From: Nitrospirota bacterium
GTDB taxonomy: Bacteria; Nitrospirota; Nitrospiria; Nitrospirales; NS-4
NCBI GenBank assembly: GCA_005877615.1
Contig: VBOD01000108.1
Location: 18,750 to 82,749, forward strand
Direction of reading: 5' to 3'
Length of the DNA: 64,000 bases
Shown: positions 9,164 to 14,120 of the stretch, piece by piece
How the letters are laid out: every line of letters starts with the position of its first letter
Numbering within the stretch: the stretch's first letter is position 1
Translations under genes and position numbers: made by a program
The notes under the pieces: generated by a model
The model's input: only the letters and a program-made list of their open reading frames with translations
What the model was told of the DNA's origin: nothing
Database searches by the model: none

Positions 9164-12100
9164 TCACCTCCCTCCGCCTGCTCGTTGCTGCCGGAGGTCC
9201 TCCAAGATTCGTTTCGCTACGTTGTCCCGCTGCCGCCACTTGGTCGGATGATGGGTCCGGCGGCAGGCCGGGGAAAACTCACAATAGTCGCAGTACTCGC
9301 CGGGCAGGATAAAGAAGCGCCCGTGCTGCACCCCCTCGAGGATCACGCGCACGGTCCCCTCCCCGCAGACCGCCGCGAGCCTCGTCCGCACCACCGGCCC
9401 GTTCGGCCAGTACGGGGCAAGGAAATAGAAGGCCGCCTCGTCCGGCACGGCCGGCTCCTCCTTTAAGACGCCGGTGGCGGCCAGCAAGTACAGCGGCGGC
9501 TGCAGGCGCTTCCCTCTGAGGGCCGCCGTCGCCAGATCGCGGTCTTCCAGTTTGGGCCCGCCCGACTCCGTGTACTTGTAGTCCACGATGCGGACATGGG
9601 CCTGCCCGTTCTCCCGACGCACATCCACCCGATCGAGGCGGCCGCGGATCGGCACGTGGCGCTGGGTGTCCGGCAACGTCGCGCCGAACGAGCCGGTCAC
9701 GGCCACCTCGAACAAGAGCGGACGGTAGCCGGACGCCCGCAGCTCCTGGAGGTCGTTCTCGATGAACGTCCGGACGAGGCGAGTGAGGTCTTCCTTGACC
9801 AGAGACCAGAGCAAGGGATAGCCGACGGGTTCGGTGGCTTCGAAATGGGTGAAGGCTTCGTCGGCAGCCGCACCCAGCCAGGCGTCGATGTCGGAGGAGG
9901 TCACCTGATCCGGAGCGACCTTGCGTTCAGTCAGCCGCTGGTAGAACAGTCGGAGGATGGCGTGGCACAGGGTGCCGCGGGCCCGCGCGTCCGGCACGAG
10001 GACGGAATCGGGCGTCTCCAGCGGCTCGAGCCGCAGGACTTTTTCGGCAAAATACTTGAAGGGACACTGCGCGTAGCGTTCCAGGGCCGTGGGCGAGACT
10101 CCGTGCCGCTCCAACATCCGCCAGTGGGCGCGGGCGACTCCGACCATGCCGTCATGGGGCGTCAGCGCCGGCTTCATCGAGTCAAGGGAGGCGACCGCCG
10201 CCAGCCCGTGCGCGAACAGCTCGGGCGGCTGATGCAGCCGCAACACCGACGTGAGGCTGGACGACGCGCCCCCTTGCAGGATCATCAGCAGGCCCGCCTC
10301 GCGCGGCGTGAGGACGGCGTAGTCGGACGGCCGCTGGGCAAACGGCCGCTCCGTCCACCGTAACGTCGGGCGACGCGTGATCCGGAGCTCGCTCTCGCCG
10401 ACGTGCGGCTTCAGCTCCGCCAGGTAGCCGGAGGGGACCATCATGCGGCCGTCGCGGTCGGCGCGTTGATGGCTGAGGACGACCCGCTCGCGGGCCGAGC
10501 GGAGCAGGAGCGCGACGAGCAGGCGCTCTTCCTCGAACCCCTCCAGCTTGCACGGGATCTTGAAGCCGAGATCGCGCGCCAGGACAACCCGGTCGGCATC
10601 GCGCAAGAACGGGTCCTCCTGGACGGAGCGCGGGAAGACCTTCTCATTGAGCCCGAGCACGAAGAGGGCGCGGAACGGCACGCCGCGGGCGTCCATCGCA
10701 TCCAGGACCTGGACTCCGTGGCGATCGCCAGCCGCGGACGGCACGCGGGCACGCTCTAGCACGCGGATGACATGCTCCACCCAGTCCGCCAGGGTGATGG
10801 CCTCGCTCAACTGCTCCAGCGACGCGACGGACTCCAGACACGCCTTGATGGCCGTCTGCACCCGGTCTGCGTGCGTGTCCGACGCGCCCGTCTCCCAGGC
10901 CGGCAGGTGGAAGTATTCCGGCAGCAGCTGTCGAAACTCTTCGGTGTAAGCATCCCATCCCGCCGTGCCGGGCAGCGCCGAGAGGGCCCGGTGCAGCCGC
11001 GCGACCAGGTCGAACAGCAGCGCCACCTGCTCGGCGGCGATGGCCGGCCGGGGCTGCTCCGCGTCATCGTCAACAGGCACGGCAAGGCCCGTCTTCGCGG
11101 CCCGCTCCAGGCGCAGCCAATCGCCCAGGCTGCCATCTTCCGGATTGCCCCGAACGATGCCCAGACGGCGGGTCGCCCAATCCCACAGGTCCGGGCGCAG
11201 ATTTGCATCAGCCGGACAGAGTTCTGCAACTCGGAAGGCGGGGGAAGTCAAAACCTCGATCACGAAAGCCCGCGGGAAGGCTTCCACCGGGAGGCGGAGA
11301 AACCGGATGATCGTCTTGACCAGCGGTTCATGGATCAGGGGCTCGCCCACCGGACAGGCGAAGGGAATCCGGTTGTCATCAAAGATGCGGCGGAGAGTCG
11401 GCATATAGGGGTCGAGCGTCCGCGCCACGACGCCGATCTCCAGCGGATCGCAGCGGGAGTCCTCGATCAGGCGGAGAATCTCCTTGGCCGCCGCCGCCAC
11501 CTCGTCCTCGACGCCGACGACGCTGACGATGCGGCAGGCCCCGCGAACAGCCGGTGCCATTTCATCAGCCAGCGATGACGTAGTGGGTGTGGGAGGGGCG
11601 CTTCGGGTGGGGCCCCCTCCCACTCTAATGGCCAACCCCTGGATGTACGTCTCAAAGAACCGCTGCGCGAACCGGTAGTCCGCGGATTCCGGTCGCACGG
11701 GGAAAAAGAGCGTGGTGGGGTACGCGCCCGCGACGGCCTTGAAGAAATCCAGTTGGCCTTGGGTCAAGTCGTAAAAGCCGTAGTAGCAGATGCGGGCCAT
11801 GCGGTTCAGGAACGCGGAGTCCGCCACGCGCTCCATGGCCAGGGCGGCCAGATCGTCCGGATCGGCGAGCCGCAGCGCCCGGTCCACTTCGAGAACGGCC
11901 GCGTACAGGCGAACCAGCGCGGCCAGGCGCGCCGGGTCGTCGGTCCTGAGCCGCCCCTCGTCCAGCGCCTGTAACACGGCGGACGGATCCACCCGCGCTT
12001 CCTTCAGGTCCTGGACCGTCGCCCAGAGACCGGTCCAGAGCCCCTGCATCCCCCGCCGGTCGCGGAATGCCTCCGCGCCGGGCACGCCGCGGTCCACGAG

Positions 12101-12391
12101 ATAGCGCAGCAGCTCTTCGCGGAAGGATCCGTTCACCAGGGCCGGCAGGATTTCTCCGCCCGCCTCCCGGAGCACGGTCATGGCCAGTTGATGGAACGTC
12201 AGCACGTGGCACTCAAGGAGCGCGCGCCCCTGCTCCACGGACAGGAGCCATTTCACGCGCCGCGCGAGCTGATGCGACGGGACCACGATGGCGAGCGGGC
12301 GGAGCGGATCGTCCTGTTTCAGCGAGTGGGATTCAGCGACGAGGGCGTTTTCGAGATCGGGATGGAACGGACCGGTGACGATCGAGAGCAT
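9164..12391 (-). CDS. addB: Helicase/nuclease subunit B (AddB-type, PD-(D/E)XK nuclease with Fe-S cluster cysteines)
   Basis: Lies 4 nt downstream of addA. C-terminal motif GRLDRVDV...IVDYKY and Cys cluster QCPFKY...CDYCEFSPAC. The size (1075 aa) is typical of AddB. Confidence 0.8.
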   Translation of the reverse strand: MLSIVTGPFHPDLENALVAESHSLKQDDPLRPLAIVVPSHQLARRVKWLLSVEQGRALLECHVLTFHQLAMTVLREAGGEILPALVNGSFREELLRYLVDRGVPGAEAFRDRRGMQGLWTGLWATVQDLKEARVDPSAVLQALDEGRLRTDDPARLAALVRLYAAVLEVDRALRLADPDDLAALAMERVADSAFLNRMARICYYGFYDLTQGQLDFFKAVAGAYPTTLFFPVRPESADYRFAQRFFETYIQGLAIRVGGGPTRSAPPTPTTSSLADEMAPAVRGACRIVSVVGVEDEVAAAAKEILRLIEDSRCDPLEIGVVARTLDPYMPTLRRIFDDNRIPFACPVGEPLIHEPLVKTIIRFLRLPVEAFPRAFVIEVLTSPAFRVAELCPADANLRPDLWDWATRRLGIVRGNPEDGSLGDWLRLERAAKTGLAVPVDDDAEQPRPAIAAEQVALLFDLVARLHRALSALPGTAGWDAYTEEFRQLLPEYFHLPAWETGASDTHADRVQTAIKACLESVASLEQLSEAITLADWVEHVIRVLERARVPSAAGDRHGVQVLDAMDARGVPFRALFVLGLNEKVFPRSVQEDPFLRDADRVVLARDLGFKIPCKLEGFEEERLLVALLLRSARERVVLSHQRADRDGRMMVPSGYLAELKPHVGESELRITRRPTLRWTERPFAQRPSDYAVLTPREAGLLMILQGGASSSLTSVLRLHQPPELFAHGLAAVASLDSMKPALTPHDGMVGVARAHWRMLERHGVSPTALERYAQCPFKYFAEKVLRLEPLETPDSVLVPDARARGTLCHAILRLFYQRLTERKVAPDQVTSSDIDAWLGAAADEAFTHFEATEPVGYPLLWSLVKEDLTRLVRTFIENDLQELRASGYRPLLFEVAVTGSFGATLPDTQRHVPIRGRLDRVDVRRENGQAHVRIVDYKYTESGGPKLEDRDLATAALRGKRLQPPLYLLAATGVLKEEPAVPDEAAFYFLAPYWPNGPVVRTRLAAVCGEGTVRVILEGVQHGRFFILPGEYCDYCEFSPACRRTHHPTKWRQRDNVAKRILEDLRQQRAGGGR
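11583..11627 (+). repeat. In-frame GC-rich palindromic repeat element inside addB, opposite orientation to the other copies
   Basis: Core at 11583-11621; on the plus strand it reads GTGGGTGTGGGAGGGGCGCTTCGGGTGGGGCCCCCTCCC. The gene reads the complementary strand as VGGGPTRSAPPTPT. Confidence 0.8.
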
Positions 12392-12513
12392 GACGGAAGT
12401 AGCCTAACGGAAAACCGAGAGGGGCACAAGAACGGATGTCACCTTTTGCACGCTGCCGTGTCTCATTGACAAGGAAAACAGTCCAGCATACTCTTTCCAA
12501 ACACGGATTCACG

Positions 12514-13107
12514 ATGGACCAGGAACTCGTTCAGTATCTCGATAGCCGATTCCAATCGGTTACCAGGCAATTCCAAGAGTTGCGGGGGGAGATGAGTGAA
12601 CAGCTCCAAGGGTTGCGCGGCGGGACGACCGAGGGGTTCCAAGGGTTGCGTGATGAGACGACTGCGGGGCTCCAAGAGTTGCGTGGCGAAATGACCGCGG
12701 GGTTCCAAGAATTGCGCGGCGAGATGACCGCAGGGCTCCAAGGGTTACGCGGGGAGATGACTGAGGCGCTCCAGGGGTTGCGCGGCGAGATGACCGCGGG
12801 GTTCCAAGGGTTACGCGGGGAGATGACTGAGGAACTCCAAGAGTTGCAGGGGGAGATGACCGCGGGGCTGGAAGAGGTCAAGCGGCACTCCGGCGTGCTG
12901 GTAGAAGGCCTCCGGCACGAGCTTCAGCTCGTGGCCGAAGGCTTCGCCATGCACGTCCAAGTTCAGCACGTGCAGGAACGGGAATACCACGACCGGCAGC
13001 ATCAGGAGACCCGCGCGCTCATCCGATCACTCTATGATGAGCTCCGGCAGCAGCACGACCACCTCCGCCAGCGTGTCGAGAACCTCGAACAGAAGAGACA
13101 GAACTAG
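12514..13107 (+). CDS. Repeat protein: nine tandem 11-residue units (LRGEMTAGxQG) followed by a His/Gln-rich coiled-coil tail
   Basis: ATG at 12514 within ORF 12436..13107. TTGACA (12466-12471), 17 nt, TACTCT lie upstream. The periodic sequence is visible in both DNA and protein. Confidence 0.7.
   Translation: MDQELVQYLDSRFQSVTRQFQELRGEMSEQLQGLRGGTTEGFQGLRDETTAGLQELRGEMTAGFQELRGEMTAGLQGLRGEMTEALQGLRGEMTAGFQGLRGEMTEELQELQGEMTAGLEEVKRHSGVLVEGLRHELQLVAEGFAMHVQVQHVQEREYHDRQHQETRALIRSLYDELRQQHDHLRQRVENLEQKRQN
12580..12876 (+). repeat. Tandem 33-nt coding repeat, 9 units
   Basis: Units TTGCG(C/G)GG(C/G)GAGATGAC(C/T)GCGGGG(T/C)TCCAAG(G/A)G with few substitutions. They encode LRGEMSEQLQG, LRGGTTEGFQG, LRDETTAGLQE, LRGEMTAGFQE, LRGEMTAGLQG, LRGEMTEALQG, LRGEMTAGFQG, LRGEMTEELQE and LQGEMTAGLEE. 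Confidence 0.9.
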
Positions 13108-13118
13108 GGCCGAGCGGC

Positions 13119-13523
13119 ATGGCAGACAGAAGATACAGCCAACGGGGCTATCGGGAACACGAGAAGGAGCGGCAGGGAAAGCCCAAGGACCCTGCGCGAT
13201 CGGGCGCGCCTGCGATGCCTCAAACTCTGACCGTCTCCCGCTGCACGGACTGCGGAACGCTGCTGCCGCCTCTCACCGACTCGCTCGGCCAGTGTCCCAA
13301 GTGCAGGTCAGAACTCCATTCCTGCCGGCAGTGCGCCCACTTCGATCCCGGCCAGCATTTTGAGTGCACCCAGCCTGTGCCGGAGCGCATCTCCAACAAA
13401 GGCGCTCGCAATGAGTGCACGTTCTTCTCGCTGCATGTCACGGTGGAACGTGATGCCTCGTCGGGGTCCGCGCGCCCTGAAGATGCTCGCCGCGCTCTTG
13501 ACAACCTCTTCAAGAAGAAGTAG
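13119..13523 (+). CDS. Hypothetical zinc-ribbon protein with basic N-terminus
   Basis: ORF track, 134 aa. Motifs CTDCG...CPKC...CRQCAHF...EC. It lies 11 nt downstream of the repeat-protein gene and is probably co-transcribed. Confidence 0.6.
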   Translation: MADRRYSQRGYREHEKERQGKPKDPARSGAPAMPQTLTVSRCTDCGTLLPPLTDSLGQCPKCRSELHSCRQCAHFDPGQHFECTQPVPERISNKGARNECTFFSLHVTVERDASSGSARPEDARRALDNLFKKK

Positions 13524-13681
13524 CTCGGCCTCCTAGCCCTCCGCCGGAGCCTGTCCCTGTCTTGTTCGATGTAGGGGCGCCGTGTGCTGCGTCCGTTCCT
13601 TCATGATCTGAAGAGTGCGGCGGGAGGAAGCGGAGCGGGAAATGGAGTCTGACCCTAATTTTCTTTTCCCGTGAGCAAAGA

Positions 13682-13710
13682 CACGGGGCGCCTGCAGCAG
13701 GCGCCCCGTG
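13682..13710. terminator. Perfect GC-rich hairpin between convergent genes (terminator-like)
   Basis: CACGGGGCGCCTG cag CAGGCGCCCCGTG, 13-nt arms. No clean U-tract on either strand. Confidence 0.4.
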
Positions 13711-13724
13711 GAGTGATTGTTGGC

Positions 13725-13991
13725 TTACTTCAGGTGCTTGCTGACGAGTTTCGTCATCTCGAACATCGACACCTGTGTCTTGCCGCGGAAAACCTCCTTG
13801 AGCGCGGCGTCAGCGTTGATCATGCGTCGGTTCTTGCGGTCCTGCAGCTTCTTGCGCTTGATGTAGGCCCAGAGCTTCTTGGTCACTTGGGTGCGCGGCA
13901 TGGGTTTGTTGCCGATCACCGCGCCGAGAGCGGCGCTGGGTTTCATCGGTTTCATGAATGCGGCACTCGGCTTCCTCTTCTTCTTAGCCAT
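13725..13991 (-). CDS. SWIB/MDM2 domain protein
   Basis: 88 aa. Basic N-terminus MAKKKRKP, then LGAVIGNKPMPRTQVTKKLWAYIKRKKLQD...INADAALKEVFG-like...MFEMTKLVSKHL, typical of the SWIB fold. RBS GAGAGGAGAG upstream. Confidence 0.8.
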   Translation of the reverse strand: MAKKKRKPSAAFMKPMKPSAALGAVIGNKPMPRTQVTKKLWAYIKRKKLQDRKNRRMINADAALKEVFRGKTQVSMFEMTKLVSKHLK

Positions 13992-14120
13992 CGTCTATCT
14001 CTCCTCTCAATAGAGTTGGGTGTAATGTTTCCGCGTGGACGGGTACGGCCAGCGCGAGATTGCGTCAACCCGAGTGAAAAGTCAACTACAACCCATTTTT
14101 CTGTCCTTGTCCCCGTCTGT

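Follow-up and report, generated by a model that had tools for sequence, protein, structure and literature searches.

The 64,000-nt stretch of Nitrospirota DNA analyzed here (the window) contains a real and conserved gene, most likely spanning 12514-13107 on the plus strand (stop codon included), for a repeat protein of 197 aa in which nine 11-residue units (hendecads) lie between an N-terminal cap and a C-terminal core, both of them conserved. The locus is a coding variable-number tandem repeat with stable haplotypes, and its copy number changes in register between relatives. Judged by sequence similarity, the gene is a member of a family, hitherto undescribed, whose proteins measure 90-220 aa and which has several copies per genome. 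The explanation that we favor, and consider probable, is that the product is a soluble, acidic one-helix protein that assembles into a nearly straight hendecad coiled coil, i.e. an extensible rod between cap and core.

An earlier note on this DNA had described nine in-frame tandem units of 33 nt at 12580-12876, encoding 11-mers of the LRGEMTAGFQG type, and this description holds. Tandem Repeats Finder reports a period of 33 over 12572-12876 (9.2 copies, 76% matches, 0 indels), together with an additional 99-nt row covering the same array. The lag-33 identity of the array is 0.765, against 0.305 +/- 0.032 (maximum 0.417) in 1262 other 297-nt stretches of the window; the repeat is therefore real and far above chance. 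The 33-nt consensus on the plus strand, TTGCGCGGGGAGATGACCGCGGGGCTCCAAGGG, encodes LRGEMTAGLQG, and the plus frame reads as nine 11-mers of that type: LRGEMSEQLQG, LRGGTTEGFQG and LRDETTAGLQE (units 1-3), LRGEMTAGFQE, LRGEMTAGLQG and LRGEMTEALQG (units 4-6), and LRGEMTAGFQG, LRGEMTEELQE and LQGEMTAGLEE (units 7-9). The units are not near-identical, as had been stated, since pairs of them share 21-31 of the 33 bases (64-94%, mean 77%), and the mean residue identity is 66%. Nor did we find the general recent expansion that had been supposed. The sole clearly recent event is the duplication of a 66-nt, two-unit block within units 5-8 (12712-12843, plus strand), recognized from the unit-pair identities (31/33 bases alike for units 5 and 7, 29/33 for units 6 and 8) and from a 30-nt exact in-register match at lag 66, which starts at 12737 and marks the copying of units 5-6 into 7-8. 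In every allele, the final unit, or the single one where there is just one, is the positional ortholog of unit 9 of the window (12844-12876, LQGEMTAGLEE). The array also leaves open an antisense ORF of 116 aa (12531-12881, minus strand), which we rejected as a coding frame and regard as a by-product of the repeat, because in more than 500 homologs it is the plus frame that contains the conserved cap and core.

The longest ORF in the frame of the gene is 12436-13107. The homologs examined, drawn from the more than 500 that a search of clustered proteins gave, start with MDQELVQYLD; in the window, the matching start codon is the ATG at 12514. Several database entries use the upstream ATG at 12436, beginning MSPFARCRVSLTRK..., and thereby read through the promoter; given where the homologs start, and that the promoter lies inside 12436-12513, these starts are probably mis-called. 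The cap, MDQELVQYLDSRFQSVTRQFQE (12514-12579, plus strand), was delimited by invariant residues and by comparison of orthologous alleles: E4, L5, L9 and F13 are invariant in 82 family members, and the cap DNA is 95-98% identical across the orthologous alleles. The core, VKRHSGVLVEGLRHELQLVAEG...ETRALIRS...RQRVENLEQKRQN (12877-13104, plus strand), emerges from the family alignments. The exact 197-aa product is present on at least 23 contigs, from different assemblies and more than one source, so the array is not an assembly artefact. For the non-repeat parts, comparison with close alleles gives a dN/dS of 0.2-0.55, a range computed from only 6-14 differences. No second copy of the family was found within the 64-kb window, and an Rfam scan of 12000-14000 returned no relevant match.

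The length variation expected of such a locus is indeed present. With the allelic series defined as those loci that share the intergenic sequence of the window, orthologous alleles were found with two (L070, L006/L062), three (L051, L141), four (L042, L076, L150), six (L041, L139) or nine units (the window and L156), their flanks being 96-99% identical; the window represents the longest allele seen. Compared segment by segment with the window, the flanks of L070, L076, L150, L139, L041, L141, L093 and L156 are mostly 96-99% identical, with single segments at 88-95%. A more distant syntenic ortholog (L025) has a single unit. The short alleles retain recognizable parts of the array: in P0007, unit 1 precedes a chimeric unit made of units 2 and 9, and L076 has kept units 1 and 2 (32/33 and 31/33 bases identical, respectively) and lacks the internal units. 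The reading frame is always kept, because the unit is 33 nt long. Whole units would be added or removed in register, through unequal recombination among the 33-nt repeats or through slippage during their replication, so that related strains would have rods of differing length.

Arrays of equal length are near-identical between strains, with 1 difference in 297 nt in one case and 0 in 198 in another. Concerted evolution, the other process that had been put forward, is not seen: mean unit identity within arrays is 25.3/33, as against 25.4-25.8/33 between arrays, i.e. there is no homogenization. A phase-variable contingency locus was considered and rejected, as the frame is preserved whatever the number of units, at least 23 contigs have the identical nine-unit allele, and arrays do not change from strain to strain to the extent just given.

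Certain other loci depart from the simple allelic series. In L093, where the gene starts at about position 1033, exactly one 11-mer, VKRHSGVLVEG, has been lost in register, and with it the near-invariant KRH motif of the core; this allele could reflect relaxed selection. L108 and L127 occupy the locus of the window: they share its intergenic region and are 93% identical in the C-terminal part, and their variable segment is of heptad type, VDQRFDRVEQRLDAHDQRF. This segment resembles that of the paralog L008, which suggests segment exchange between paralogs. Finally, L166 has a frameshifted copy in a rearranged locus, with the N-terminal match on the opposite strand and two zinc-ribbon matches, and may be a pseudogene or a mis-assembly.

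These data also bear on whether the length of the array matters at all. It could be a slippage-prone insertion that is tolerated in a permissive part of the protein and whose copy number simply drifts, with no length-dependent role. One to nine units occur in relatives at no obvious cost, the KRH-less and frameshifted copies just described exist, and the ribosome-binding site of the window is weakened (GGATTC, as compared to GGAGGC in relatives), all of which speaks for drift. We nevertheless judge it an unlikely explanation: the variable segments of the wider family are mostly of helix-compatible sizes, haplotypes are stable to the extent given above, the nine-unit allele recurs across different assemblies, and dN/dS is below 1 in the non-repeat parts.

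The sequence of the repeat itself points to a helix, and the 11/3 periodicity proposed in the earlier note is confirmed by the hydrophobicity spectrum, which for the repeat has its maximum at 3.68 residues. On an 11/3 helical wheel, L1, M5 and L/F9 fall on one narrow stripe, at 0, 33 and 65 degrees, with arginine along one edge of the stripe, glutamate along the other, and glycine, alanine, threonine and glutamine on the opposite side. Only 3 of the 11 repeat positions are hydrophobic. For the C-terminal part the hydrophobic period is 3.65, and for the variable segment of a paralog with heptads it is 3.50. The repeat contains 8 K+R and 19 D+E (net charge -11), 20% glycine and no proline, and the whole protein has a pI of 5.1, a GRAVY of -0.88 and 11.7% glycine. 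No membrane segment (highest 19-residue Kyte-Doolittle mean 0.72) and no signal peptide or anchor were detected in the protein, which has an acidic N-terminus and is predicted to be cytoplasmic.

AlphaFold2 models the window protein as two helices, at residues 3-34 and 40-196, interrupted within the atypical unit 2; the mean pLDDT is 86.9, with values mostly above 90 over the second helix. The one-unit ortholog P0009 is modeled as a single helix (2-108, pLDDT 94.4). The pTM values of these single-chain models (0.34 and 0.45) are as expected for an isolated rod. Hendecads place hydrophobic residues at positions a, d and h and give almost no supercoiling (PMC9858780). This a/d/h pattern on a continuous helix is what the 3.68-residue period, the wheel and the AlphaFold single chains display here. 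We infer coiled-coil oligomerization, and for the repeat a role as spacer or rod. The fold would be one very long alpha-helix, which would then oligomerize as a nearly straight 11/3 coiled coil, and the segment between cap and core would be extensible, with nine 11-residue units in the window strain and a rod length of about 1.6 nm per unit, as calculated from helix geometry.

The contents of the variable slot in relatives are in line with this geometry. They include LRGEMTAGLQG 11-mers, other 11-mers, LRGEFQG 7-mers and (I/V)DQRF(D/E)x 7-mers, and LRGEFQG equals the 11-mer minus MTAG, the classical four-residue stutter relation. Slot lengths peak at +0, +11, +14, +15, +21, +22, +28, +32, +35 and +39 residues over the minimum, i.e. 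they cluster at sums of 7 and 11, with +15 (16 sequences) as the main exception. In the core, 144 out of 152 sequences have a KRH-to-RVENLE distance of 57, 64, 71 or 78 residues, values that differ by multiples of 7. In more distant members the units measure 7, 11 and 18 residues, and in one relative 13. As the sequences are mutually related, this length quantization is descriptive and not a statistical test. Indels in the family are mostly of sizes compatible with a coiled coil, mainly 7 and 11 residues, and 18 in one distant relative. Against the rod stand the +15 class and the 13-residue unit, neither of which is a sum of 7s and 11s. AlphaFold also gives helices for sequences whose folding is conditional, which likewise counts against it, as do the KRH-less allele L093 and the glycine content of the repeat (20%), unusual for a stable coiled coil.

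It is this glycine content, set against what a very stable coiled coil would have, that keeps alive a conditional-folding alternative of the LEA/hydrophilin/CAHS kind. In that case 11-mers so rich in glycine would have no fixed structure in dilute solution, would become helical or form fibres or gels upon drying or osmotic stress, and would protect a soil bacterium. The 11-residue period, the glycine and the low GRAVY of the protein agree with such a stress protectant, and the lineage is known only from genomes of uncultured Nitrospirales, several of them from soil. That a genome has several copies, each of them behind a near-consensus promoter, suggests an abundant product. Fibres of this type are reported for a CAHS protein of tardigrades whose sequence combines hendecads and stutters (PMC12887604). 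Yet no LEA model was matched at E up to 1 in a Pfam scan, most paralogs are poor in glycine (3.7-4.6%) with crisp heptads and a clear hydrophobic seam, and the conservation of cap and core speaks for a defined structure. The promoter also counts against this reading, as it resembles, by its consensus only, the housekeeping sigma-70 type. Hydrophilins are defined by more than 6% glycine and very high hydrophilicity (index >1). The glycine content of the window protein is above that limit and its GRAVY is borderline; the glycine content of the paralogs lies below the limit. On balance, a protectant function seems to us rather improbable.

The earlier note had instead drawn an analogy to helices that bind lipid surfaces, as in apolipoproteins, LEA group 3 proteins, perilipins and synucleins, and this analogy found no support: the corresponding models are unmatched at threshold, the protein is acidic with a narrow stripe, and paralogs have heptads. 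An amphipathic helix on a lipid or granule surface, of apolipoprotein, perilipin, synuclein or phasin type, would share the 11/3 periodicity; there is a sub-threshold match to Apolipoprotein (PF01442, E 8e-9), and one JGI auto-annotation of a distant relative reads phasin. The PF01442 match, at 35.9 bits, is to be compared with a gathering cut-off of 90, however, and the LEA_4, perilipin and synuclein models were absent from the Pfam scan at E up to 1. The repeat lacks proline punctuation, the protein lacks a signal peptide, and the strongly negative charge, with arginine on one edge and glutamate on the other, is not a class A pattern. A class A amphipathic helix as such (a wide non-polar face, basic edges, proline-punctuated 11/22-mers, secreted) was thus rejected. 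With just three hydrophobic positions in eleven, with heptad paralogs filling the same slot, and with no lipid or storage-polymer genes recurring in the neighborhoods of family members read in detail, surface binding of this sort appears highly improbable. What the window protein has in common with apolipoprotein A-I/A-IV/E, LEA group 3, perilipin and alpha-synuclein is the 11-residue repeat with 3.67 residues per turn; it differs from them in being acidic and in its narrow stripe, the missing lysine-rich edges and the heptad paralogs.

The hendecad rod that we prefer was further compared to known rod-forming and length-varying proteins. In Actinobacteria, FilP and Scy form long hendecad helices with hydrophobic a, d and h positions, and their rods have been lengthened in evolution by added hendecads (PMC9858780). 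The window protein shares the 11-residue period, the hydrophobic a/d/h positions and the long helix, and has a weak compositional match to the Scy model, with 17.8 bits as against an equivalog cut-off of 1040 (NF041483). It differs in lacking the DivIVA-like N-terminal motif (the Pfam scan gave no DivIVA domain), in being shorter by a factor of 5-10 and glycine-rich where those are alanine-rich, in coming from another phylum, and in having several copies per genome. Streptococcal M proteins are coiled coils whose size varies between strains through in-register recombination between intragenic tandem repeats; they are secreted, anchored to the cell wall, and vary under immune pressure. The window protein, in contrast, has neither signal peptide nor anchor; its predicted location is the cytoplasm. 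Lpp, the needle-length ruler YscP and phage tape-measure proteins are helical proteins whose length changes by whole repeat units, and the likeness of the window protein to these, in its whole-unit length change, is by analogy only. It differs from ruler proteins in that no conserved neighboring genes surround the family members read in detail. Tape-measure models gave weak matches in the relatives P0061, P0375 and P0396 (E 2e-4 to 7e-3), confined to the coiled-coil part, and no match to the window protein itself.

A search of 5.8 billion clustered proteins yielded 546 relatives, those among the 120 listed being 109-191 aa long. Their common architecture consists of the cap, MDQELVQYLDxRF, a slot of variable length, and the core, EEVKRHxGVLVEGLRxxxxLVAEG...ETRALIRS...RQRVENLE. 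Pfam and NCBIfam scans of the window protein and its relatives gave no model at its cut-off, only sub-threshold coiled-coil matches. A profile search of PDB sequences returned nothing meaningful (the best was a designed helical repeat protein, E 0.004), and Foldseek found no match of the AlphaFold model in the PDB, as expected for a single helix. Among PADLOC and PHROG models there was likewise no specific match: weak ones concerned the coiled-coil segments of ZorA, JetC and DruC, and in the PHROG scan only PHROGs of unknown function. Literature searches turned up no paper on the family.

A scan of species-representative genomes located 35 loci, of which almost all belong to genomes of uncultured Nitrospirales or Nitrospiria. 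Copies number at least six in one genome and at least five or three to five in others, and are sometimes in tandem. Distant relatives with the core E(E/D)xKRHTGVLxEDL..LVxEG occur in other Nitrospirota, in Terriglobia and in Clostridiales. An exhaustive profile search of 1.84 billion representative proteins gave 333 representative clusters at E <=1e-10 and 1872 at E <=0.001. The best 150 matches listed are 66-219 aa long, and ten of them, which were examined, consist of repeats plus core without any further conserved domain. Distant relatives (P0375, P0388, P0440 and P0498) have their own tandem units, namely at least 17 GRFEQID-type heptads, 18-mers, 13-mers and C-terminal 11-mers; repeat expansion is therefore a family-wide habit. 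Within one cluster of the wider family, member lengths are 176, 187-188 and 199 aa.

The gene neighborhoods of the members read in detail are mutually unrelated, and no neighbor family recurs among them. They comprise e.g. a toxin-antitoxin island, genes for a WD40 protein and a sigma-54 regulator, ScpAB, Mg-chelatase-like genes and molybdenum-cofactor genes. In the window, the neighbors are as previously described: a divergent upstream gene (9164-12391, minus strand) codes for an AddB-like protein with ADDB_N and PD-(D/E)XK domains, followed by an AddA-like helicase gene, and a zinc-ribbon gene of 134 aa (13119-13523, plus strand) begins after an 11-nt gap downstream of the end of the repeat gene at 13107. 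We found no terminator-like site between the latter two genes, which at this locus are probably co-transcribed. Whether the pair forms a conserved unit had been raised as a question. It is present at 16 out of 115 family loci, all of which represent one orthologous locus in close relatives, and is missing in the more distant ortholog L025. The zinc-ribbon gene, in turn, is found without a family gene in L169 and L170 and is conserved by itself in Nitrospiraceae, Nitrospirota and Rokubacteria. A zinc-ribbon partnership as a feature of the family was hence rejected in favor of a lineage-specific neighbor. Convergent to the zinc-ribbon gene lies a stand-alone SWIB/MDM2-domain gene (13725-13991, minus strand, E 4e-29), with a 13-bp GC-rich hairpin between the two (13682-13710). 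In L027, a family paralog adjoins a SWIB gene that is 90% identical to the one in the window.

The family genes share a promoter cassette. In the window, the cassette and short leader are predicted by consensus match, as read from the sequence, at 12432-12513 on the plus strand. A T-rich element, TCACCTTTTG, is followed by CGTGTCTCATTGACA, with a -35 box TTGACA at 12466-12471, a 17-nt spacer and a -10 box TACTCT at 12489-12494, i.e. a near-consensus promoter that looks like the housekeeping sigma-70 type. The CCGTGTCTCATTGACA region is part of this cassette. The nine-unit allele of the window has the weak ribosome-binding site GGATTC (12500-12513), L156 and L041 have GGAGTC, and most relatives GGAGGC. 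The promoter 15-mer has one match in the 64-kb window, and the same 15-mer occurs, exact, upstream of the family genes in 31 of the 35 loci that were found by protein alone. The cassette precedes nearly every paralog (L006-L036), with the consensus tTTTacCtTTt, about 9 nt, CCGTGTCTYATTGACA, 17 nt, TAnnCT and a GGAGG ribosome-binding site, and its approximately 45 nt are almost invariant, whereas the proteins are only about 50% identical. As this conservation reaches well beyond the two promoter hexamers, it suggests an extra binding site or a UP-like element.

The same cassette was also found before antitoxin genes of toxin-antitoxin modules in the same lineage (L009, 5365-5962; L093, 2677; L156, 3816; L113), where the modules involve an Unstab_antitox antitoxin with a ParE toxin, or a HicB-like antitoxin. 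A more far-reaching proposal would make the family members abundant cytoplasmic spacers or rulers tuned in length, co-regulated as a lineage-specific system through the cassette that also drives the toxin-antitoxin modules, with coiled-coil length as the selected trait. We regard this as distinctly unlikely; if true, the alleles would amount to rods of about 16-29 nm segregating within one species.

Apart from its repeat and its family, the locus is that of an ordinary hypothetical gene. The family, in contrast, is widespread and was previously without description, as illustrated by the 333 representative clusters mentioned above. For coiled-coil research it offers a natural series, in which one and the same slot is filled by one to nine hendecads, by heptads (equal to the hendecad shortened by four residues) or by further units compatible with a helix. 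As this takes place among very close relatives, the series constitutes a ready-made test of periodicity and length tolerance in a rod.
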